Both the position numbers and the translations under genes were made by a program. Below the pieces are notes generated by a model, which did no database searches, was not told the DNA's origin, and saw only the letters and a program-made list of their open reading frames with translations. DNA of 64,000 nucleotides. Source: an uncultured Bifidobacteriaceae bacterium (GTDB lineage Bacteria > Actinomycetota > Actinomycetes > S36-B12). Shown piece by piece: positions 1 to 59,375 of this stretch (position 1 is the stretch's first letter; the number at the start of each line of letters is the position of its first letter). The stretch is taken from positions 1,661 through 65,660 of the forward strand of contig CAZQXO010000007.1 in the NCBI GenBank assembly GCA_964597445.1. Direction: 5' to 3'.

Positions 1-762
1 GCCCGACGCGCGCAGGATCCCCTGGGCCGATGGGTTGAGCCGCACGTAGTCGACGAAGGCACGGGCAGCAGCCTGCTGGCGGGAGTCCGCGACCACCGCG
101 ATCGGATAGGTCGTCGTCACGTTCCGGCTGCTCGGGATCGGCACCCCGGTCACCTTGCGACCGGCGGCACGCACGTCGGTGACGTAGACGATGCCGGCAT
201 CGACCTGATCGGCCATGACCTTGCCCAGGACGGCGCGTACATCCAGTTCGCGTGTCACGGGCGTGACGGTGATGCCGTTCTTGGCGAACAGATCACGCGC
301 CGCAGTGCCGCACGGCACGGCGACTTCGCAGAGGGCCACGCTGACCCTCGACAGATCCGTCAGGGATCTCACGCCTGCAGGATTGCCGGGTGGAGTGGCG
401 ATCATCATGGTGTTCCCGGCGAAGGGGGATGCTCGGCTGACCAGCCGGCTCGAGAGGGCCTTCGCCATCGTCGACTGGGACGCGGTGGCAAGGACGTCGG
501 CAGGAGCCCCGGCACGGAGCTGCTCGACGAGTGCGCTGCTGCTGCCGAAGTTGAAGGTGACATCGATCTGCGGGTGCGCCTTCTCGAAGGCCGCGGCGAT
601 GACGGGGAAGACATCGGTCAGTGACGCGGCGGCCGAGACGGTGATGGTGCCCGAGGGTGCCGTGGATGGCTTGGGAGTGGCGGTGGAGGGGACGGCGATC
701 ACCGCGGCGACCGTTGCGGCGGCGCCGGCGAGGGAGACGAGGAGAGTCAGCCTCGTCTTCAT
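1..762 (-). CDS. modA: Molybdate ABC transporter substrate-binding protein; C-terminal end cut by the window edge
   Basis: Not in the ORF track because there is no stop in the window. My translation of the minus strand from the ATG (cat at 760-762) reads MKTRLTLLVSLAGAAATVAAVIAVPSTATPKPSTAPSGTITVSAAASLTDVFPVIAAAFEKAHPQIDVTFNFGSSSALVEQLRAGAPADVLATAS... This is a signal peptide followed by a ModA-like sequence. Its ATG overlaps the stop of the upstream Mop-domain regulator (ATGA). Confidence 0.8.
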   Translation of the reverse strand, partial: MKTRLTLLVSLAGAAATVAAVIAVPSTATPKPSTAPSGTITVSAAASLTDVFPVIAAAFEKAHPQIDVTFNFGSSSALVEQLRAGAPADVLATASQSTMAKALSSRLVSRASPFAGNTMMIATPPGNPAGVRSLTDLSRVSVALCEVAVPCGTAARDLFAKNGITVTPVTRELDVRAVLGKVMADQVDAGIVYVTDVRAAGRKVTGVPIPSSRNVTTTYPIAVVADSRQQAAARAFVDYVRLNPSAQGILRASG

Positions 763-49775: not shown

Positions 49776-50474
49776 TCAGCGCGAGCGCCCCTGGCCGAAG
49801 CTCTCGTAGGCCTTGACGGCCGCCGCGTGCCACGTGCTGTTCACGGAACTGATCCGGCTCGCCGTCTGCTGAGCCTGCTTCTCGGAGGGGGCTCCCTCCA
49901 CGGCGCGGAAGACCTCGGTCTGGACGATCGCGAGACCCCGCTGCGTGGTTCGCACATCCTCGAATACCTGAGCTCCGCCGTCGGTGTAACTGACGCCGGC
50001 GGCGTAGCCGGTCCGCGAGTCGTCGGTGAAGTCCGATCCCGACTGCGCGGGCACGAGCGTGCCGCCCTCGTCGGCGATCTTCGGATTGTCGCTGCACCCG
50101 GCCTTCTGCAGGGCGGCCAGGGCTGCCTGCGCCTTGGCGGCATCGGCGTACTGGAAGACGGTGACGGAACCACTGGTGTTGGGGTCGATCTGGTATCCGA
50201 CAGCTCCCACGACCTTGGCTGCGGGCAGGGTCACGGCACCCTTCGCATTCCAGCACAGGGTGGGCACCGTGAAGGACCTGCTCGACTCGGAGTAGTAGTA
50301 GTTCTGGGTCCACGAGCCGAGGCTCTTCGGCATCTGGGCGCGCAGAACGGTCTGCTGAAGCTCGGCGGGCTTCATGTAGACGTAGTCGTCGGCCTGGGCG
50401 GCGCTCGTCACGCCGAGGGTGAGAGCTGCTGCGAGCGTCGCGGTGGCGGCGAGGGTGCTGGTGAGCTTCATCAT
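49776..50474 (-). CDS. Secreted hypothetical protein
   Basis: Internal ATG 50474 of ORF 49776..50594. Signal peptide MMKLTSTLAATATLAAALTLGVTSAAQA. Two Cys. No family recognised. Confidence 0.6.
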   Translation of the reverse strand: MMKLTSTLAATATLAAALTLGVTSAAQADDYVYMKPAELQQTVLRAQMPKSLGSWTQNYYYSESSRSFTVPTLCWNAKGAVTLPAAKVVGAVGYQIDPNTSGSVTVFQYADAAKAQAALAALQKAGCSDNPKIADEGGTLVPAQSGSDFTDDSRTGYAAGVSYTDGGAQVFEDVRTTQRGLAIVQTEVFRAVEGAPSEKQAQQTASRISSVNSTWHAAAVKAYESFGQGRSR

Positions 50475-51108
50475 GGCCCCATCCTGCCTCAGGCTGACCG
50501 TGCATGGGACCATCCACGGCGTGACACACACGGAGCCCCCCGAGGGCACGCAGGCCCTGCTCTTCGACTGCGACGGAACCCTGGTCGACACCATGGGCGT
50601 CTACCGCATCGGCTGGCGCCAGGTCTTCGGCCGGCACGGCTTCGAGATGACGGACGAGTGGTTCGCCACGTGGGGTGGGCACAGCACCCAGTCCTTCGTG
50701 GAGGCGGCCTTCCCGGACGCTGAGCCGGAGTTCATCGCGCAGGTGAGCCGCGAGGGCCACGAGACATTCCTCGCGTCCGTCCACCTGGTCGAGCCCTTCG
50801 ACCACGTGCTCGAGGTCGCGCGGGCCCATCACGGACGACTGCCGCTCGCGGTCGTCTCGGGAGGTCCCCGGGTCGCGGTGCTCGCCTCTCTTCGGGCGGT
50901 CGGGATCGAAGAGATGTTCGACCTGGTCGTCACGGCCGATGACGTCCCGTCGGGCAAGCCGGCCCCTGACGCCTACCTGCGGGCCATCGCCGACCTGGGG
51001 GTCGACGCGTCGCGGTGCGTCGCCTACGAGGACAGCGCCAGCGGGATGGCGTCGGCTCGCAGCGCCGGAATTCCGCTGGTCGTGGATGTGCGCCTGCCCG
51101 AAGACTGA
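50473..51108 (+). CDS. HAD-superfamily hydrolase (beta-phosphoglucomutase-like subfamily IA)
   Basis: ORF 50419..51108. Motif I LLFDCDGTLVDT, VVSGG, SGKPAPDAY, YEDSASG. The start is uncertain (ATG 50473, GTG 50500 or GTG 50521). Confidence 0.8.
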   Translation: MAPSCLRLTVHGTIHGVTHTEPPEGTQALLFDCDGTLVDTMGVYRIGWRQVFGRHGFEMTDEWFATWGGHSTQSFVEAAFPDAEPEFIAQVSREGHETFLASVHLVEPFDHVLEVARAHHGRLPLAVVSGGPRVAVLASLRAVGIEEMFDLVVTADDVPSGKPAPDAYLRAIADLGVDASRCVAYEDSASGMASARSAGIPLVVDVRLPED

Positions 51109-51139: not shown

Positions 51140-51165
51140 CGATGGTGCCGGTCTCAGGAGGACTC

Positions 51166-51636
51166 GTGATCGACTACACGACCCAGATGTTCCACGTCGG
51201 CCACCTGGTGCCGAACCTCCAGCAGGCCATGGACCAGCTCGGTGCGGACTTCGGGTTCGAGTGGACCGAGGTCGTGGTCCGTGAGGACCAGCCGCTCTGG
51301 ACGCCCGAGGAGGGCCAGCGCTCGGTGCCGCTGACGTTCTGCTACTCGATGGCCGGCCCGCAGCGGGTCGAGCTCATCGAGGGGCCACAGGGCACGCCCT
51401 GGTGGCACGGTGATCCGGAGAACCTCCATCACGCGGGCGTCTGGGCCGATGTCCCCGCCCTCACGAACGAGCTTCTGTCCCGCGGCTGGACCCTCGTCAT
51501 GGCCCAGAAGTCGCCGGAGGAGGGGTACGGCTCCTTCAGCTACGTGCGCTCACCCACGGGCTTCCTCCTGGAGCCGGTGGCCCTCGCCAACAAGCCGCGC
51601 ATGGAGCGCTGGTTCGAGACCGGGATCCTCGGCTAG
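51166..51636 (+). CDS. VOC family protein (single-module glyoxalase/epimerase-like)
   Basis: ORF 51142..51636. GTG 51166 follows AGGAGG. MFHVGHLVPNLQQAMDQL...RVELIEG...NLHHAGVWA...GFLLEPV. Confidence 0.75.
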   Translation: MIDYTTQMFHVGHLVPNLQQAMDQLGADFGFEWTEVVVREDQPLWTPEEGQRSVPLTFCYSMAGPQRVELIEGPQGTPWWHGDPENLHHAGVWADVPALTNELLSRGWTLVMAQKSPEEGYGSFSYVRSPTGFLLEPVALANKPRMERWFETGILG

Positions 51637-51727
51637 CCCCGGCGTCCGTCGTCGGGGTCACGCCCGGGGGTGAGGATCCGCCAGGTTCCCGTGGTGCTGG
51701 AGCAGATGCTGTCCTAGTCTTCGGCCC

Positions 51728-53488
51728 ATGACGGAGACAGCCAAGACAGGTCAGGTCAGCGACGACTGGTGCATCGACAGCGCCAAGCTCAACGAGCGCT
51801 TCCCGGTGTACACCCGGTTCAACGCCAACGACGTGCTTCCGGACCCGATCACCCCTCTGGGTGCCGATCTGATCTGGAACCCGCACATCCTCCCGGGGTT
51901 CTCGAATGCCTATGCCGACATGGGCGCGATCTCCGTCGCCGAGGCGAATGTCGACCTCGACGCCTTCCCGGCGGCAGCCTTCCGCTACGGGCACATGTAC
52001 GTGAATGTCACGACGGCACGGCTGACCGGCATCCGCAGCGGCCTCGGCTGGCAGGCCATCGATGCGCAGTTCTTCGGCAGCCATCCTGACGCGCCCCCGC
52101 ACGAGGATCATCCGGACGACGGCGACCCCGTGGTCTCCCAGCGCCTCGCCGACCGCACCACGTGGACCCTCACGACCTCGTCCTTCCCCGACCTCGAGGA
52201 GGACACCCGGATCGCGGATCGACTGCGTGCGCAGCGCCCGGACTTCGACGAGATGAGCAACGCGGCTCTCGTCGCGTACGCCCGCAGCCTCGCGCCCTAC
52301 GAGCGCATGACGTGGCGCGGTGAGCTCGTCGGCGGCGCCCAGGCAGCCATCGGCCCAGCCGTGCTCGGCTCCCTCATCCCGGCGGAGATGGGCCTGTCCC
52401 CCTTCGACCTGGTGGGCCCGGCGGGCGACGTCGTCTCCGCGCAGCCGTCCTACGCGCTGTGGGACCTCTCCAGGATCGTTCGCGCCGACGCTGCGCTCAT
52501 GGAGCTCTTCGATGCGGGCGTCGACGGCATGGTGCCGTGGCTCAAGGAGCACCACCCCGAGTTCCACCAGCGCTTCATGGCCTTCCTGCGCGAGTACGGC
52601 TACCGCGGACCGTCCGAGTGGGATCTCGGTGCGGACTCCTGGGAGACCAAGCCGGAACTCCCGCTCGCCCTCATCGACCGCATGCGATTCCTCGACGACG
52701 AGCAGTCGCCGGTCGCGCGCCGCACGCAGGGAATGCAGGCCGCCGAGGAAGCTGTGGCACGCGTGGCCGAGGCCCTCGCGGGGAGCGAGGAGGCGCTGGC
52801 CACGATGCGCATGGCGCTCGACTCGGCTCGCCGGTTCGCCGGCTACCGCGAGCTCGGCAAGAGCAACTGCATCAAGGTCATCAACGAGGCTCGTGTGGCG
52901 CTGCTGGAGATGGGTCGGCGCCTGACGAATGAGGGCTACCTCGATCGGCCGCAGCAGATCTTCATGGCCCTCGACGTCGAGTTGGACCGACTGGTGCTGC
53001 AGCCCGACCTCGTCGTCGATGCAATCAAGCAGCGCGAGCAGGACTGGAAGGCCTACTTCGATCTCGAGGTTCCGCTGTTCCTCGATGCCCGTGCGCCGCG
53101 CGTGCCGGTTACGCAGGTGCCTCGCAAGTCGGGCGACACATTCCCGGCCGCCTCGGTCGGCGACACCCTCACAGCCATAGGCGCGGCCGCGGGTCGCGCT
53201 TCAGGCCGCGCTCGCGTGATCCTCGATCCGGGTGCCATTGCGGATTTCGAGCCGGGTGACGTGCTCATCGCTCCGCAGACGGATCCGTCGTGGACCCCGC
53301 TGTTCGTCGTGTCCAGCGCCGTCGTCGTGGGCGTGGGTGCACCGAACAGTCACGCGATGATCGTCAGCCGTGAGCTCGGCATCCCCTGTGTCGCTGGTCT
53401 GGAGGGAGCCACGCAGCGCATCCCGGACGGTGCCATGGTGACGGTCGACGGCTCCACGGGCACGGTCACGATCGACAGCATCGGCTAG
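51728..53488 (+). CDS. PEP-utilising-enzyme mobile (swivel phosphohistidine) domain protein; rifampicin-phosphotransferase/PpsA-like but with no ATP-grasp domain
   Basis: 586 aa. The C-terminal swivel domain is GRASGRARVILDP...FEPGDVLIAPQTDPSWTPLF...GAPNSHAMIVSRELGIPCVAG. The long helical N-terminal region carries FLREYGYRGPSEWDL. Confidence 0.8.
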   Translation: MTETAKTGQVSDDWCIDSAKLNERFPVYTRFNANDVLPDPITPLGADLIWNPHILPGFSNAYADMGAISVAEANVDLDAFPAAAFRYGHMYVNVTTARLTGIRSGLGWQAIDAQFFGSHPDAPPHEDHPDDGDPVVSQRLADRTTWTLTTSSFPDLEEDTRIADRLRAQRPDFDEMSNAALVAYARSLAPYERMTWRGELVGGAQAAIGPAVLGSLIPAEMGLSPFDLVGPAGDVVSAQPSYALWDLSRIVRADAALMELFDAGVDGMVPWLKEHHPEFHQRFMAFLREYGYRGPSEWDLGADSWETKPELPLALIDRMRFLDDEQSPVARRTQGMQAAEEAVARVAEALAGSEEALATMRMALDSARRFAGYRELGKSNCIKVINEARVALLEMGRRLTNEGYLDRPQQIFMALDVELDRLVLQPDLVVDAIKQREQDWKAYFDLEVPLFLDARAPRVPVTQVPRKSGDTFPAASVGDTLTAIGAAAGRASGRARVILDPGAIADFEPGDVLIAPQTDPSWTPLFVVSSAVVVGVGAPNSHAMIVSRELGIPCVAGLEGATQRIPDGAMVTVDGSTGTVTIDSIG

Positions 53489-53494
53489 CGGGCG

Positions 53495-54043
53495 GTGCGC
53501 GAGCCGCTCATCCGCTACCCGATCGTCCAGTACGCGTACGTCGTCGATGATCTCGATGAGGGTGTGCGTCACTGGGTTGAGGTGATGGGTGCTGGTCCCT
53601 TCTTCGTGAGTCGCAGCCATCGCGGCCGGGATCACACCTACCGCGGTGTGCCGGACGAGGCGGTCTTCTCCTACGCCTTCGGGCAGGCCGGCCCTGCTCA
53701 AGTGCAGCTCATCCAGTGCATGGATGACTCCCCGTCCATCTATCGCGACATGTTCGCGCCAGGGGAGAGCGGCTTCCACCACGTCGCGTGCCTCGTGCCG
53801 GCCGCGGACATGGAGCGCGAGGTCGCCCGATTCGTGGACGAGGGCTTCGAGATCGCGTCGACCCTCCATTCGTACGTGCCCGTCGCCTACCTTGACTGCC
53901 GCAGCGCACTCGGGTTCTTCGTCGAACTGCACGGCCTCAATGAGGACGTGGCGGATCTCTTCCGTGAGATCCGTGAGGCACACGAGTCGTGGGACGGTGT
54001 CACGGATCCCATGCGCGTGCGTAGCAAGTCGAGTTCGCTGTGA
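53495..54043 (+). CDS. VOC family protein, paralogue 1 of a tandem pair
   Basis: 182 aa. IVQYAYVVDDLDEGVRHW...GAGPFFV...YAFGQAGPAQVQLIQ...SIYRDMFAPGESGFHHVACLVP...FFVELHGL...SWDGVTDP. Confidence 0.8.
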   Translation: MREPLIRYPIVQYAYVVDDLDEGVRHWVEVMGAGPFFVSRSHRGRDHTYRGVPDEAVFSYAFGQAGPAQVQLIQCMDDSPSIYRDMFAPGESGFHHVACLVPAADMEREVARFVDEGFEIASTLHSYVPVAYLDCRSALGFFVELHGLNEDVADLFREIREAHESWDGVTDPMRVRSKSSSL

Positions 54044-54573
54044 TCACATCGCCGCTGCTGCGCCACCGCATCGTCCAGCACGCCTTCGTCGTCCCTGATC
54101 TCGATCAGGGAATCGAGAAGTGGCGCTCCACTCTGGGAGCGGGTCCGTTCGTCGTCATGCGCGACTTCGTCGGGAACCAGCTGATGTACCGGGGCGAGCC
54201 CAGTACGACTCCGGTCGACTACGCCTTCGGACAGTCGGGTGACATCCAGATCCAGCTGATCGCCCAGCAGGGGGAGGGCTCGTCGATCTACCGCGACATG
54301 TTCGCGCCGGGCGAGGGTGGCTTCCACCACGTCTGTGCGCTCGTGCCGATGGACGATTGGGAGGCTCAGCTCGCCGCGTTCACCGATGCGGGCTACGACA
54401 TGGCCGCCTCGCTCATGACGTCGGCGCCCGCGGTCTACTTCGACTGCCGGCGCGACGTCGGCTGCTTCGTCGAGCTCTATGGCCTCACCGAACGCTCGGG
54501 AGGGTTCTTCACGCACCTGCGCGACCTGCACGACTCCTGGGACGGCGTCACCGATCCCATCCGATCCCGCTGA
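54040..54573 (+). CDS. VOC family protein, paralogue 2 of a tandem pair
   Basis: 177 aa with a GTGA-type overlap with paralogue 1. IVQHAFVVPDLDQGIEKW...GAGPFVV...YAFGQSGDIQIQLIA...SIYRDMFAPGEGGFHHVCALVP...CFVELYGL...SWDGVTDP. Confidence 0.8.
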   Translation: MITSPLLRHRIVQHAFVVPDLDQGIEKWRSTLGAGPFVVMRDFVGNQLMYRGEPSTTPVDYAFGQSGDIQIQLIAQQGEGSSIYRDMFAPGEGGFHHVCALVPMDDWEAQLAAFTDAGYDMAASLMTSAPAVYFDCRRDVGCFVELYGLTERSGGFFTHLRDLHDSWDGVTDPIRSR

Positions 54574-54586
54574 CGACTGGAGCGCC

Positions 54587-55006
54587 ATGTCCGACCTTCC
54601 CTTCGAGCTCGTTCCCCTGGCCACGGTGCGGGTGACCCGTGGAGAGATCCATCGCATGGGCCAGACGGCCTTCCACACGCGGGTCATCGGTGCCATCTCG
54701 CACGGGAGATGGGACGGCGAACGGCTCAGCGGCGAGATCGTGCCCCCGGGCGGCGACTGGGCCCTCCCGTCGGGCGACGGGACGGTCATGCTCCTAGAGG
54801 TCCGTCAGGTCCTCCGCACGGACGATGGTGCTCTGGTCTATGTGACGTACCACGGCCGTGCCGACCGCCATCGCGGCACCTACACCGTGGCGCCGACCTT
54901 CGAGACTGATGATGAGCGCTACCTGTGGCTCAACGCCGTGCAGGCGATCGGGCAGGGGCGCTCGGACGGCGACGACATCGTCTACGAGATGTTCGAGGTC
55001 CGCTGA
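54587..55006 (+). CDS. DUF3237 (UPF0311) beta-barrel protein
   Basis: C-terminal 139 aa of ORF 54479..55006. PPGGDWAL, LRTDDGALVYVTYHG, APTFETDDERYLWLN, YEMFEV. Confidence 0.7.
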   Translation: MSDLPFELVPLATVRVTRGEIHRMGQTAFHTRVIGAISHGRWDGERLSGEIVPPGGDWALPSGDGTVMLLEVRQVLRTDDGALVYVTYHGRADRHRGTYTVAPTFETDDERYLWLNAVQAIGQGRSDGDDIVYEMFEVR

Positions 55007-55093: not shown

Positions 55094-55858
55094 ATGGTGC
55101 CGTCCGCCATCGTGACCGGAGCAGGTGCCGGCATCGGCGAGGCCACGGCCCGTCTGCTCCATGCTCGGGGGTATCGAGTCATGGCGGCCGACGTCTCATC
55201 CGAGGCCCTTGCCTGGACGTCGGGGATCGACGGCATCGTGGCGCAGGTGGCCGACGTGAGCATCGAGGCTGACAACGCCGCGATGGTCGAGGCCGCCCTC
55301 GCGGCGTTCGGCCGGCTCGACGTGCTCGTCCTCAATGCCGGCATCGCACGACGCACCCACTGGACGGCGGACGATGCCGTCGAGGCATTCGACCGCATCA
55401 TGGCCGTCAACGCACGCGGCGTGGTGCTGGGGATCCGACACGGCGCTCCCGCCATCGCGGACTCCGGGGGAGGGGCCATCGTCGTCGTCGGCTCGACATC
55501 AGGAGTGCGCGCGGATCCCGAGCGCTTCGCCTACGACGCCTCGAAGGCGGCAGCGATCAACACTGCTCGTGCGGCAGCCCTGGACTGGGGCGTCAAGGGC
55601 GTTCGCGTGAACGTGATGGCCCCCGGCCCCACCATGACGGCCATCCTGCAGGGGGGCCGGGTGAGCGACGAGCACCTCGCGGAGCTGACCCGCAACATCC
55701 CGCTGCAGCGCATGGGCACCCCTGAGGAGCAGGCTGAGGCCATCTGCTTCCTTGCCTCGCCCGCGGCGAGCTTCATCACCGGTGCCGTCCTGATGTGCGA
55801 TGGCGGTGTCACCGCGCAGGCGGGCATCTTCCCGCCCCCGCAGAAGGAGAGCGCATGA
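55094..55858 (+). CDS. SDR family oxidoreductase
   Basis: TGAGAGIG, NAG and YDASK motifs. The track start GTG 55088 is an alternative. Confidence 0.9.
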   Translation: MVPSAIVTGAGAGIGEATARLLHARGYRVMAADVSSEALAWTSGIDGIVAQVADVSIEADNAAMVEAALAAFGRLDVLVLNAGIARRTHWTADDAVEAFDRIMAVNARGVVLGIRHGAPAIADSGGGAIVVVGSTSGVRADPERFAYDASKAAAINTARAAALDWGVKGVRVNVMAPGPTMTAILQGGRVSDEHLAELTRNIPLQRMGTPEEQAEAICFLASPAASFITGAVLMCDGGVTAQAGIFPPPQKESA

Positions 55859-57276
55859 GGGAGTACGACGTCGATGTCGTGGTCGTGGGGTCGGGTGCCG
55901 CTGGCCTGTCGGCGGCCCTGGCTGCGTCGGAAGCGGGCGCGACGGTGCTCGTTGCCGAGTCGGAGGGAATCATCGGCGGCTCGTCCCGCCTGTCGGGGGG
56001 CCTGATGATGGGCGCCGGCACGCGGTACCAGCGCGCCCTGGGAATCGAGGACTCCCCGGAGGCCCTGTTCCACGACTACATGACCCTGAACCAGTGGAAG
56101 GTGGAGAGCGCTGTCGTCGAGCGGCTGACGCAGCGTGCCGGCCAGGCAGTGGAATGGCTGGGCGATCACGGTGTCGAGTTCTACGACCAGATGGTCTACG
56201 GCGGGGATGAGACGGTGCCCCGAGTCCACTGCCCGATCGGGCGCGGCCAGGCGGTCGTCGACACCCTGTATGCCCGGTGCCGTGAGGCCGGCGTCGAGTT
56301 CGCCCTGGGCCAGCGGATCGACCGCCTCGTGGTGCAGAACGGAGTCGTGCGCGGTGTTGCCGTCGGCGGTGATGAGATCACCGCGGGCGCTGTCATCGTC
56401 GCGAGCGGGGGATTCGGCGCCAACGAGGAGAAGCGCCGCGAGTTCTTCCCCTCCGTCTTCGACACGGGCTGGTCCTACTACATCGGTGCGGACGGTGCCC
56501 GCGGTGACGCCCTCGACTTCACCCGTGAGGTCGATGCGCAGGTCACCGGATTCGACCGTGGCCTTCGCCTCCTGCACACGGACTTCGACAGGATGTACGA
56601 GGCGTACATCCCCGGCTGGCTCATCCTCGTCAATCGCGACGGACGCCGATTCTGCAACGAGACCGCCCCCTACGGGATCATGGACGGCCTCCTGGCGGAG
56701 CAGGGCGATGTCGCCTTCGCCGTCTTCGACCACCGCCGGCTCGTCGAGGCGACCGAGTTGGGTGTCGCGCGCTACAAGCAGGCGATTCCCGGATCCACCA
56801 AGAGGCAGAGCCCGCACTGGAACCTCGACGTCATCGAGTTGATGCAGAAGGAGGGCAAGGTCCACGTGGCGGACTCCGTCGACGCCCTGGCGGAGCGGAT
56901 CGGCGTACCGGCCGCCCACCTGCGGGCGACGGTCGAGCGCGTGAACGAGCTCCATGCCCGCCAGCAGGACGCCGACTACCTCAAGGATCCCTCGTTCCTC
57001 GAGCCCATCGCGGAGGGTCCCTTCTACGCGGTCGAGGTTCGCCCGGCCACCTGCTGCTTCACGGCATGCGGACTGCGCATCGACCGCGACGCGCAGGTGC
57101 TCGAGTCCAGCGGTCGACCCATCCCGGGGCTCTTCGCGGCAGGCGAGGTGACCGGCGGTGTGATCGGACCGCGTTACGTCGGAAGCGGCAACTCGTACGG
57201 CAACTGCGTGACGATGGGACGCGTCGCCGGTCAGTCGGCGGCTGCCCTTGTCGTCCGCGGGAAGGTTGACGCATGA
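55855..57276 (+). CDS. FAD-dependent oxidoreductase (FAD_binding_2; KstD / soluble fumarate-reductase-like flavoprotein)
   Basis: Internal ATG 55855 of ORF 55795..57276, overlapping the SDR stop (ATGA). DVDVVVVGSGAAGLSAALAASEAGATVLVAE, ASGGFGAN, GLFAAGEVTGG. Confidence 0.85.
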   Translation: MREYDVDVVVVGSGAAGLSAALAASEAGATVLVAESEGIIGGSSRLSGGLMMGAGTRYQRALGIEDSPEALFHDYMTLNQWKVESAVVERLTQRAGQAVEWLGDHGVEFYDQMVYGGDETVPRVHCPIGRGQAVVDTLYARCREAGVEFALGQRIDRLVVQNGVVRGVAVGGDEITAGAVIVASGGFGANEEKRREFFPSVFDTGWSYYIGADGARGDALDFTREVDAQVTGFDRGLRLLHTDFDRMYEAYIPGWLILVNRDGRRFCNETAPYGIMDGLLAEQGDVAFAVFDHRRLVEATELGVARYKQAIPGSTKRQSPHWNLDVIELMQKEGKVHVADSVDALAERIGVPAAHLRATVERVNELHARQQDADYLKDPSFLEPIAEGPFYAVEVRPATCCFTACGLRIDRDAQVLESSGRPIPGLFAAGEVTGGVIGPRYVGSGNSYGNCVTMGRVAGQSAAALVVRGKVDA

Positions 57277-57761
57277 GCATGCGGGTCGATGATCGCGAGG
57301 CCATCCGCGAGGCGACGCTGAGATATGCGCGTGGCGTGGACCGGCTCGACACGGAGCTGATGAAGAGCGCCTACTGGCCGGATGCCACCGATGATCACGG
57401 CCGATTCGTAGGAAACGGCTGGGAGTTCGCCGAGCGCGTCGTGGGCACCCATGACCGCTGGGCGGCGTCGATGCACTGCGTCTACAACCACAGCATCGAG
57501 TTCGACGACGATGACCATGCGCGAGGCGAGCTGTACAACGTCACGTACCTCATCCCGCGGGACGGGGGACCCTGGTCGGTCTGGCTGGGGCGCTACCTCG
57601 ACCGCTACGAGCGACGCGAGGGTCAGTGGCGCATCGTCCACCGCATCTGCGTGCACGAGGCGACCACGACCGTCGAGCACGCGCCGATGGCGGGCGACAT
57701 GTCGAACTTCCGCACGGGAGACGCAGACCGGCCCCGAGGGGATCGTCCGCTAGGCACCTGA
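57273..57761 (+). CDS. SnoaL-like / NTF2-fold protein (SnoaL_4-type)
   Basis: 162 aa with ATGA overlap with the flavoprotein gene. DREAIREATLRYARGVDRLDTELMKSAYWPDATDDHG...YLDRYERREGQWRIVHR. Confidence 0.8.
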   Translation: MSMRVDDREAIREATLRYARGVDRLDTELMKSAYWPDATDDHGRFVGNGWEFAERVVGTHDRWAASMHCVYNHSIEFDDDDHARGELYNVTYLIPRDGGPWSVWLGRYLDRYERREGQWRIVHRICVHEATTTVEHAPMAGDMSNFRTGDADRPRGDRPLGT

Positions 57762-59375
57762 CGCGGCTGCGAGCCCGGCCAGGCGCCCGAACACCAGGAT
57801 CGGTCCGAGCGTGCCGCCGGCGCCGCCATAGGCCATGGCGGTCGGTGCTGCCGCGACGTTGCCCGCGGCGTACAGGCCGGGGATGACGTCACCGTGCGTG
57901 TCCAGCACGTGGCCGTCGGGATCCGTGCGCGGGCCGCCGCTCGTGCCCAGCGTGCCGGACTCGACGCGGACGGCGTAGAACGGCCCACGGTCGATACGGC
58001 CCATGGTCGACGCCTTCAGGAAGCGGTGGTCGCCGTCGCCGCTCCAGCGGTCGTAGGCGCTGTCGCCACGTCGGAAGTCCTCGTCCTGCTCCCGATCGAC
58101 GAAGCCGTTCCAGCGGTCGATCGTGGCCTCCAGGCCATCGGGGTCGATCCCGACCTCGACGGCGAGGTCTCGGATCGTGGCAGCCGTGGCGACCCAGTCA
58201 GGCACGCCGGAGCCGGCTGGGGCCCCGAACGTCCCGTACCTCTCTGCATGCGAGGCATCGAAGATCAGCCAGGCCGGCAGGTTGGCGTAGGTGAACGTCA
58301 CCGGGTCGAGCTGGTGGAAGGCACCGCCGAGGGCGTTGTAGTTCGTGGCCTCGTTCGTGAACCGCCGCCCCGCCGAGTTGACCATGATCGAGCCCGGAAG
58401 GGTGCGCTCGCGGTTGACGAGATTCGACCGCTGCTCGCCGAAGGCGACATCCCCGGGGATCTTGACGGCCGGGACCCACCAAGCCTGACCCATGTTGCCG
58501 AGCTGGGCACCGATGCGCATCGCCATACGCAGGCCATCTCCGGTGTTGGTGGGCACCGATGTCGGAGCCGTCATGGGGCCGCGCAGGAAGGCGGACACGA
58601 GTTTCGGGTCCCACTCGAAGCCACCGGTCGCGAGGATGACGCCGCGCCGTGCCCGCACGATCGTCTCGGTGCCGTCGATCTCGATCCGGGCTCCCGTGAC
58701 GCGGCCATTCTCCACGAGAAGGTCGGTCGCTCGTGCGTTCACGACGGGGTCGATGCCGAGGTCGAGAAGGGCTTTGATGAGGGGCCCGACGAGGGCGTTG
58801 CCGCACCCGCGCAGGTCGTTGTCGATGCGCCGCTGCATCTCCTCGTCCGACAGGTAGCCGGTGCCTCCACCGAGCGTGGTGTCGGTGATCTTCAGGTGCG
58901 CGCTGCGCTTGCTGCGGGCGACCCTGTTCTGCCATGCCCCGAGGGTCGTGAAGTCGAACAGCCCGGGGTCGAGAGACCGGCCTCCGTCGGGCTTCCCGCC
59001 GGGGTTCTCCGGGTGGTAGTCGGGGTACTGGGGCAGAAGGGTGAACGCGGCGTCGGTGGTGTCCTCGAGCCACTGGATGGTCTCGCGACCGTGATCGACG
59101 AAGGCGGCGGCCATCGTCGGGTCCATGCGGTCCAGGGACAGGGATGCGAGATAGGCGAGCGCCTCCTCCCGGGAGTCCGAGACCCCGGCCGCGTCCTGAT
59201 GGTGGTTGAGGGGGACCCACGGGACCCCGCCGGAGATGGCGCTGGAGCCACCGAGGACGTCCGACCTCTCGTAGAGGCCGACATCGGCACCGGACTGAGC
59301 GGCCGCGAGGGCGGCGGTGAGGCCTGCGGCGCCACTGCCGAGCACGACGACGTCATGACTCAAACTGGACTCCAT
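57750..59375 (-). CDS. FAD-dependent oxidoreductase, 3-ketosteroid-delta1-dehydrogenase-like
   Basis: 541 aa. HDVVVLGSGAAGLTAALAAAQSGADVGLYERSDVLGGSSAISGG, ATGGFEWD, GLYAAGNVAA. Convergent 12-nt overlap with the SnoaL gene. Confidence 0.85.
   Translation of the reverse strand: MESSLSHDVVVLGSGAAGLTAALAAAQSGADVGLYERSDVLGGSSAISGGVPWVPLNHHQDAAGVSDSREEALAYLASLSLDRMDPTMAAAFVDHGRETIQWLEDTTDAAFTLLPQYPDYHPENPGGKPDGGRSLDPGLFDFTTLGAWQNRVARSKRSAHLKITDTTLGGGTGYLSDEEMQRRIDNDLRGCGNALVGPLIKALLDLGIDPVVNARATDLLVENGRVTGARIEIDGTETIVRARRGVILATGGFEWDPKLVSAFLRGPMTAPTSVPTNTGDGLRMAMRIGAQLGNMGQAWWVPAVKIPGDVAFGEQRSNLVNRERTLPGSIMVNSAGRRFTNEATNYNALGGAFHQLDPVTFTYANLPAWLIFDASHAERYGTFGAPAGSGVPDWVATAATIRDLAVEVGIDPDGLEATIDRWNGFVDREQDEDFRRGDSAYDRWSGDGDHRFLKASTMGRIDRGPFYAVRVESGTLGTSGGPRTDPDGHVLDTHGDVIPGLYAAGNVAAAPTAMAYGGAGGTLGPILVFGRLAGLAAASGA

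Follow-up and report, generated by a model that had tools for sequence, protein, structure and literature searches.

Rifampicin phosphotransferase (RPH; PDB 5FBS, 5FBT, 5FBU and 5HV1), an enzyme of antibiotic resistance, combines an N-terminal ATP-grasp domain, a domain for rifampin binding and a swivel domain bearing the phosphate-carrying histidine in a single chain of 860 aa. Its second phosphotransfer requires Arg666 and Glu667, together with Lys670 and His825, as established by mutagenesis (PMC4844700). In a group of catabolic dikinases these functions are split between two proteins: HpeI is a homologue of RPH's ATP-grasp domain, HpeH is homologous to its rifampin-binding and swivel domains, and an H581Q substitution in HpeH abolishes activity (PMC12167813). 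HpeHI/AcvAB, which act on hydroxyphenylethanones, have homologues in CreHI (4-cresol) and in phenylphosphate synthase, PpsAB (PMC12167813, PMC9618137). HpeH, CreH and PpsA share ~45% pairwise identity and form one clade. These systems also have a dedicated phosphatase, as with the NagD-like HpeD (PMC9618137) and CreD, the phosphohydrolase of the C. glutamicum cre operon. Here, we describe a gene (51728..53488, + strand) in a 64-kb stretch of DNA from an uncultured Bifidobacteriaceae bacterium (contig CAZQXO010000007.1; the whole stretch is called the window). Its 586-aa product probably belongs to a split small-molecule dikinase from the RPH/phosphoenolpyruvate (PEP)-synthase superfamily, as the subunit that binds the substrate and carries the phosphate; it would be equivalent to HpeH, CreH or PpsA and charged in trans.

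Like HpeH, CreH and PpsA, this protein joins an RPH-like substrate domain to a C-terminal swivel histidine and is devoid of an ATP-grasp domain, and like their genes, its gene lies in a catabolic cluster, near a candidate phosphatase of the HAD family. The architecture is thus already known, and current Pfam models it as Rph_4th plus PEP-utilizers. Because HpeHI, CreHI and PpsAB provide the precedent, and a Pfam Rph_4th model exists, a swivel protein without an ATP-grasp domain is not a new kind of protein. A first-pass annotation of the window had stated that in known family members an ATP-grasp domain loads the swivel histidine; the loading stands, but carriers that lack this domain have already been characterised in PpsAB, CreHI and HpeHI/AcvAB. 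The family of the window protein differs from HpeH, CreH and PpsA in three respects: the type of partner that it appears to have, how often the partner gene is unlinked, and the motif around the carrier histidine.

Architecture and catalytic residues of the swivel protein

The open reading frame (ORF) begins with ATG and has a GC content of 0.87 at third codon positions, which is usual for coding sequence (window GC 68%). Its product carries the NCBI-style name 'PEP-utilizing enzyme'. A Pfam search of the protein returned a single match, PF00391 at aa 507-578 (E 3.9e-23); neither PF01326 (PPDK_N, named for pyruvate, phosphate dikinase, PPDK) nor PF02896 was found by this search. The outcome is the one that the first-pass annotation had expected from hidden Markov models, PF00391 at the C-terminus and no PF01326. 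The precomputed annotation of the exact protein consists of PF27448 (Rph_4th) and PF00391, the PF27448 assignment coming from that source and the local run showing PF00391 alone. Alignment, conservation and predicted fold together divide the protein into a mostly helical substrate-binding domain homologous to the rifampin-binding domain of RPH (aa 1 to ~477; 51728..53158, + strand) and a swivel phosphohistidine domain (aa ~478-586; 53159..53485, + strand), in which the histidine proposed earlier is present as His542 (codon 53351-53353) and is conserved on alignment. The sequence motifs quoted by the first-pass annotation are likewise there.

Curated models place the protein near RPH and outside each named family. 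Residues ~235-582 align to the C-terminal 40% of the NCBIfam RPH, PigC and RedH models, all far below cutoffs: the RPH equivalog NF041857 scores 154.1 bits (cutoff 999) over model positions 519-863 only, and the PigC and RedH models NF052631 and NF052632 score 112-127 bits (cutoffs 1300-1350) over their C-terminal part only. The prodiginine-condensing enzymes PigC, RedH and HapC likewise match aa ~243-583 (E 1e-32 to 1e-37) with the substrate and swivel region at their C-terminus. The PEP synthase and PPDK models TIGR01418 and TIGR01828 match by the swivel only (84 bits, cutoff 740, and 19 bits, cutoff 843), and the NCBIfam PRK08296 models of ~600 aa match only at the swivel (aa 478-583). Among sequences in the PDB, residues 566-865 of Listeria RPH align to residues 277-582 of the window protein (E 1.6e-33).

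The first-pass annotation had proposed a helical, RPH-like N-terminal region of ~470 aa followed by the swivel histidine, and the predicted structure bears this out, in agreement with the PF00391 and Rph_4th assignments. An AlphaFold2 model, built from an alignment of 30 sequences, has a pLDDT of 90 and a pTM of 0.89. In Foldseek the whole model superposes on the rifampin-binding and swivel domains of Listeria RPH over ~589 columns (TM 0.66-0.67, E 3e-22, 21-22% identity). Since the predicted fold matches the rifampin-binding domain from residue 1, residues 1-470 are, in the model, a substrate-binding domain with no hidden nucleotide-binding domain; a concealed ATP-grasp domain in this region is ruled out by the Pfam search and the superposition. 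A truncated gene or an assembly artefact is also ruled out: the protein has equal length in hundreds of homologues, two independent metagenome contigs encode an identical protein, and contigs of two other studies span the junction immediately upstream of the gene.

The four residues required for the second phosphotransfer in RPH have counterparts in the window protein. R374 (52847-52849), E375 (52850-52852), K378 (52859-52861) and H542 align to R666, E667, K670 and H825 of RPH, and in an alignment of 101 family members and one RPH outgroup the arginine is found in 101/102 sequences, the glutamate in 102/102, a lysine or arginine at the third position in 102/102, and the histidine in 101/101. 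Because these residues are near-invariant in the family, the protein looks like a functional phosphotransfer module, as judged from its sequence. The suggestion that the swivel had been recruited for some other role finds no support, given the near-invariance of H542 and R374/E375/K378 across the 101 members. The carrier motif preceding the histidine reads V-G-V-G-A-P-N-S-H (aa 534-542, nt 53327-53353), and the form V-x-x-G-A-x-x-S-H is found in 73 of the 101 family members. We considered whether this form marks members that lack a loader and rejected the idea, as it is family-wide and the same with or without a partner in cis.

A search of 1.84 billion cluster representatives (50%-identity clustering) yielded 799 at E<1e-30, mostly of 570-590 aa. 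Among the best 120 homologues, nearly all have a length of 571-597 aa and carry PF00391 and PF27448, and no NCBIfam model covering the family was found. The closest genomes are 'Candidatus Nanopelagicales' metagenome-assembled genomes, at 86%, 81% and 74% identity. Further members are found in Williamsia, Dietzia, Rhodococcoides, Trujillonella, Geodermatophilus, Amycolatopsis, Actinomadura, in many Acidimicrobiia and in some Chloroflexota. In aquatic and soil Actinomycetota, in Acidimicrobiia and in some Chloroflexota the family genes lie within catabolic clusters rich in oxygenase, SDR and flavoprotein genes, and the window sequence itself occurs in aquatic, aquaculture and freshwater metagenomes. 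On present sequences, the family appears likely to be a large, uncharacterised and unnamed, largely actinobacterial subfamily of the substrate/phosphocarrier subunits of split dikinases. MarK, considered as a relative, belongs to the unrelated UPF0261 family and was discarded.

A tandem second paralogue accompanies the family gene in 17 of 83 surveyed loci (designated by L numbers; among them L018-L021, L029-L032, L034, L048 and L057). Some metagenomic proteins (P0195, P0238, P0263) fuse two substrate and swivel modules with no ATP-grasp domain. Such tandem paralogues and double fusions may form hetero-oligomers or may allow one loader to serve several acceptors. In another protein, P0163 (849 aa), an SDR (adh_short) domain is fused N-terminally to a substrate and swivel module of the family type.

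Linkage of family genes to putative PPDK-type loaders

To the left of the target gene the window extends for 51 kb, and to the right for 10.5 kb. ATP-grasp sequences of three kinds served as queries: the RPH type (Streptomyces rph and an M. branderi protein of 918 aa), the PPDK/VadK type (including a 503-aa Rhodococcus protein) and the PEP-synthase type (E. coli PpsA). Three single-sequence queries, run against all ORFs of at least 50 aa in the six frames of the window, matched only the swivel of the target itself. A profile of 17 ATP-grasp sequences gave a best E of 0.75 against the same ORFs, and in a leave-one-out control the profile recovered E. coli PpsA at 4.7e-56. Because the RPH-type seed picks up 9goj, a stand-alone ATP-grasp structure of 387 aa that is probably HpeI, at 1e-41, a partner of the HpeI type would have been detected in the window. 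Further searches of the window, with full-length PPDK, PpsA and APH queries among them, revealed no PEP-binding barrel, second swivel, APH-type kinase, HPr or EII. The three-seed phmmer search, the controlled 17-seed profile and the PPDK, PpsA and APH queries thus rule out a loader elsewhere in the window, and the earlier statement that neither the protein nor any neighbouring gene contains an ATP-grasp domain holds for all six frames of the 64 kb.

Other members of the family do have such a partner nearby. Among 83 family loci surveyed with ~10 kb of flanking sequence, 13 contain a PPDK_N-bearing gene within ~7 kb of the family gene. It abuts or overlaps the family gene in five loci (L041, L058, L073, L079, L081), lies 1.15 kb away in L071, and lies 5.4-5.7 kb away in three Amycolatopsis loci, while a divergent full-length PPDK homologue is found at 1.9-7 kb in L020/L021, L026 and L027. 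PPDK_N-type genes number only a few per genome by our estimate; at that frequency chance alone would place less than one among the ~1,300 flanking genes, and 13 loci thus represent a strong enrichment. In one protein, P0164 (1321 aa), a family member is fused to PPDK_N and a swivel. The reverse survey gave a similar picture: a gene for an Rph_4th and swivel protein lies 5-9 kb away from five of six PRK05878-type genes sampled (positive in Rhodococcus, Nocardioides, Microbacterium, Gordonia and Actinomycetospora; negative for the Streptomyces copy).

The abutting partners consist of PPDK_N and PEP-utilizers and are of the PRK05878 'pyruvate, phosphate dikinase' type, a representative of which, from L094, scores 616 bits against a curated cutoff of 456. 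All linked partners retain their own catalytic histidine, and that of the abutting partners lies in a canonical GGxxSHAA motif. The linked partners of the PRK05878 type are in this respect unlike HpeI, CreI and PpsB, which have no swivel. The partners in Acidimicrobiia and Chloroflexota (L041:11746-14010(-), L071:10102-12354(-), L079:11730-13985, L081:11706-13895) are 720-755 aa long and carry a C-terminal extension of ~250 aa without a Pfam match. The divergent PPDK homologues (L020:14477-17077, L026:5430-8024(-), L027:528-2876(-)) reach ~650 bits on TIGR01828, short of its cutoff of 843; they occur in the lineages nearest the clade of the window, their ATP-grasp domain is missed by Pfam, and they keep PEP-utilizers_C. 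Pfam reported no PPDK_N in the 867-aa neighbour in L020/L021, but the ATP-grasp profile and NCBIfam identify it as one of these divergent homologues.

Family and partner genes also meet in a recurrent cluster (L005, L094-L097, L099) that encodes an Rph_4th and swivel protein, a SurE or His_Phos_1 phosphatase, an AMP-ligase, a P450, an SDR, a PPDK_N and swivel protein and TetR, with an aldehyde dehydrogenase and a ferredoxin reductase in most loci. Its gene content mirrors that of the C. glutamicum cre operon, although the two-protein kinase is apparently not orthologous. The same pairing of Rph_4th and swivel with PPDK_N and swivel is seen on two Rhodococcus plasmids (L005, L090).

On a rough neighbour-joining tree, linkage in cis falls on at least five separate branches and is absent from the immediate clade of the window (L001, L010-L013). 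This scatter suggests an ancestral dependence on a PPDK-type loader. From ancestral dependence and variable linkage we infer that the loader of the window protein is encoded elsewhere in its genome. Of the two explanations offered by the first-pass annotation, comparative genomics thus favours the trans-acting module, through the 13 linked loci among 83, the P0164 fusion and the five positives among six in the reverse survey. Looking for a loader gene that shares a large contig with a close relative of the target was a weak test, in which only the known Amycolatopsis contig appeared among the best 120 matches listed.

The abutting partners are of the PRK05878 type, which we take to be that of the M. 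tuberculosis protein VadK (Rv1127c). Like VadK, these truncated PPDKs combine an ATP-grasp domain with a swivel histidine and are homologous to the window protein in the swivel only. A second M. tuberculosis protein is related to the window protein more extensively: the NCBIfam 'sugar epimerase family protein' model (854 positions), which presumably corresponds to Rv2047c, aligns through its C-terminal part to residues 227-582 (E 8e-37). VadK phosphorylates itself on His422 and has no defined phospho-acceptor; its reported role is to regulate the methylcitrate cycle, not to form part of a small-molecule dikinase, and no small-molecule acceptor domain is known for it (PMC13400623). Rv2047c has been described as an NAD-epimerase domain with a 'PEP-utilizing domain' (PMC7058343). 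The two genes, rv1127c and rv2047c, occupy separate loci and have very similar conditional-essentiality profiles in transposon sequencing across iron sources (NE/ES/GD/NE/NE/ES and NE/ES/ES/NE/NE/GD, respectively); both are listed with pks12 in Table 1 of that study and share mycobactin-dependent essentiality (PMC7058343). By analogy, the shared profile fits a pair of loader and acceptor and makes unlinked loader and carrier pairs plausible. These observations point to a general role for VadK-type proteins in loading substrate and swivel proteins in trans, but fall short of demonstrating it.

Proposed charging in trans and alternative explanations

In the mechanism that we propose, a PPDK-type protein encoded outside the window would bind ATP in its ATP-grasp domain; most likely it would be of the PRK05878 type, with an ATP-grasp domain and its own swivel histidine as in VadK, or a divergent full-length PPDK homologue. 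The phosphoryl group would reach His542 either directly at the ATP site of the partner or from histidine to histidine, by way of the partner's swivel. Phosphate is passed between separate histidine carriers in the same manner from Enzyme I to HPr of the phosphotransferase system, where the swivel histidine is homologous; on the side of the window protein the acceptor would instead be a small molecule held in an RPH-type domain. The loaded swivel would then dock on the helical substrate domain, where R374, E375 and K378 would position the phosphohistidine for transfer of the phosphate to a small-molecule hydroxyl. This small molecule is probably an aromatic or alicyclic compound bearing a hydroxyl, a catabolic intermediate handled by the surrounding operon, with its VOC, DUF3237, SDR, flavoprotein and SnoaL genes and, in sister alleles, a Rieske oxygenase. 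The phosphate would later be removed, plausibly by the HAD hydrolase encoded two genes upstream. In the closer clade, 16 of 29 loci have a gene of a phosphatase family (HAD, His_Phos_1 or Y_phosphatase3) no more than 5 kb away. By analogy, such phosphatases nearby agree with the scheme of the Hpe and Cre systems, in which a hydroxyl is phosphorylated, the compound transformed, and the phosphate removed.

More broadly, and much more tentatively, Rph_4th and swivel proteins and PRK05878-type proteins might constitute a widespread, often unlinked two-carrier relay that runs from ATP to the loader histidine, to the carrier histidine and on to a substrate hydroxyl. The window protein would be an orphan acceptor of such a relay, and Rv2047c an obvious candidate for the acceptor class of VadK; we regard this generalization as possible but rather doubtful. 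Were the pairing true, the strategy of phosphorylation, transformation and dephosphorylation known from the catabolism of phenol, cresol and acetovanillone would extend to many substrates, the annotations 'PEP-utilizing enzyme' and short 'pyruvate, phosphate dikinase' would conceal a two-protein kinase, and VadK-type kinases would acquire a testable class of acceptors.

Several observations weigh against charging in trans by a partner of this kind. No loader for the protein is present in the 64 kb of the window, nor within 10 kb of the family gene in its closest relatives (L001, L010-L013, L028). In all characterised systems the ATP-grasp gene (for HpeI, CreI or PpsB, of ~40 kDa) is adjacent to the carrier gene and its product has no swivel, which the partner type proposed here does not resemble. 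The family carrier motif V-x-x-G-A-x-x-S-H also differs from the form T/S-x-x-G-G-x-x-x-H that is conserved in RPH, HpeH and PEP synthase (PMC12167813), and given this departure the loading of the histidine may differ in the family. The phosphatases near family genes were detected with single seeds, and in only about half of the loci. Finally, the Rieske oxygenase gene adjacent to the target has been deleted in the strain of the window, so that the pathway may be altered or decaying.

Two rivals retain a catalytic role for His542 and change its donor. The histidine might be charged from PEP, from histidine to histidine, via a PPDK- or Enzyme-I-like protein with a swivel and a PEP barrel. The nearest lineages with a linked candidate (L020/L021, L026, L027) do have a divergent PPDK homologue with PEP-utilizers_C retained, the alignment of the L027 ORF is confined to the swivel and barrel part, every linked partner keeps its catalytic histidine, and B. 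subtilis Enzyme I alone phosphorylates rifampicin in vitro (PMC13099321). We nevertheless consider this route unlikely: a divergent PPDK neighbour occurs in only 4 loci (3 of them independent), most linked partners (9 loci and 5 from the reverse survey) have no PEP-binding domain, the window contains no PEP-binding barrel, and the characterised relatives use ATP (PMC12167813). It is also quite improbable that the protein is a transphosphorylase independent of any loader or nucleotide-binding partner, in which His542 would shuttle phosphate between two small molecules. HpeH alone takes phosphate off 4-phosphoacetophenone and passes it to acetovanillone, and an exchange of this kind is also carried out by phenylphosphate synthase with phenylphosphate (PMC12167813), but the HpeH exchange is very slow, at 2.7 nmol/min/mg, and is treated as a partial reaction (PMC12167813). 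The clade of the window has no loader within reach, and APH-type kinases, possible makers of phospho-donors, are found near some distant members; the window, however, encodes no APH or other kinase, and the linkage or fusion to ATP-grasp proteins in many branches argues for dependence on a loader.

The remaining rivals deny the protein either its activity or its catabolic role. The loss of the neighbouring Rieske gene, together with the absence of a loader nearby, could mean that the protein is a relic of a decaying pathway or a non-catalytic ligand sensor, yet the ORF is intact with coding-type composition at third codon positions, the protein is identical in the alleles with and without the Rieske gene, all catalytic residues are conserved, and L011 and L013 also have no Rieske gene and keep the target gene intact. 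This makes a relic or sensor very unlikely. Some annotations, including several JGI entries, carry the name 'rifampicin phosphotransferase', and both the best curated match (the RPH equivalog model) and the best structural match are to RPH. A role in resistance to rifamycin-type antibiotics is all the same scarcely credible for a protein that falls at 154 bits against a cutoff of 999, shares 21-22% identity with RPH, has no ATP-grasp domain, and is encoded among genes of catabolism (oxygenase, SDR, flavoproteins, enoyl-CoA hydratase). Charging in trans by a PPDK-type loader remains the more probable explanation.

Gene neighbourhood in the window and in related loci

The order of genes around the target matches that in L001, the locus of the relative with 81% identity. 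Upstream lies a HAD-family hydrolase gene (50419..51108, + strand; HAD_2, 1.3e-27), whose true start is probably further downstream than listed. It is syntenic in L001, L011, L012 and L028, and its product is a candidate phosphatase by analogy with HpeD. The next gene encodes a VOC protein (Glyoxalase_4; 51142..51636, + strand) that is conserved only in the clade of the window (8 loci). The target and the genes downstream of it are closely spaced, and a tandem pair of VOC genes begins 7 nt after its stop codon: the first (Glyoxalase_4; 53495..54043, + strand) overlaps the second (54040..54573, + strand) by 4 nt, and the two products are 51% identical; L001 has a single copy. The only PDB relative of the downstream pair is 3gm5, a weak match to an uncharacterised entry of the glyoxalase family. 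The first-pass annotation had placed the target between VOC paralogues, a description that fits the downstream pair but not the upstream protein, which is remote from it (23% identity, E 5e-4). The VOC context itself is real, but it is confined to the clade of the window (8-10 of the 83 loci) and is not a trait of the family.

Beyond the VOC pair follow genes for a DUF3237 protein (54587..55006, + strand; 139 aa by the gene call of L092), an SDR oxidoreductase (55094..55858, + strand), a FAD_binding_2 flavoprotein resembling KstD and fumarate reductase (55855..57276, + strand) and a SnoaL_4 protein (57273..57761, + strand). A second FAD_binding_2 flavoprotein is encoded on the opposite strand (57750..59375, - strand); it is syntenic with L001, and an enoyl-CoA hydratase gene comes next. 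Across the 83 family loci the neighbours are likewise enzymes of this kind: SDRs, the commonest, occur in 45, enoyl-CoA hydratases in 18, His_Phos_1 phosphatases in 14, and P450s, AMP-ligases and luciferase-like oxygenases in 12 each. The alpha subunit of a Rieske ring-hydroxylating oxygenase is encoded in 14, usually immediately upstream of the family gene.

In the window only the 3' stub of such a gene remains, its last ~45 nt (51672..51717, + strand; ...VLEQMLS*), as revealed by comparison with L093. That contig encodes an identical target protein, immediately preceded by an 83-aa ORF and a Rieske oxygenase alpha gene of 458 aa (L093:149-1773); the window is 99.8% identical to it, only from position 51672 onward, and contains no other trace of the Rieske gene. 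The window-type junction is spanned by contigs of two other studies, and position 51675 is exactly where the allele with the Rieske gene diverges in one run. The spanning contigs indicate that the junction is a real deletion and that both alleles coexist in nature, in aquatic metagenomes.

Near some other members of the family, often together with SnoaL, genes for APH/EcKL-family kinases are found (L002:14002-15000, L004:15629-16981, L095:13405-19243, L099:947-2044). These kinases may represent a separate phosphorylation system or a source of phospho-donors.

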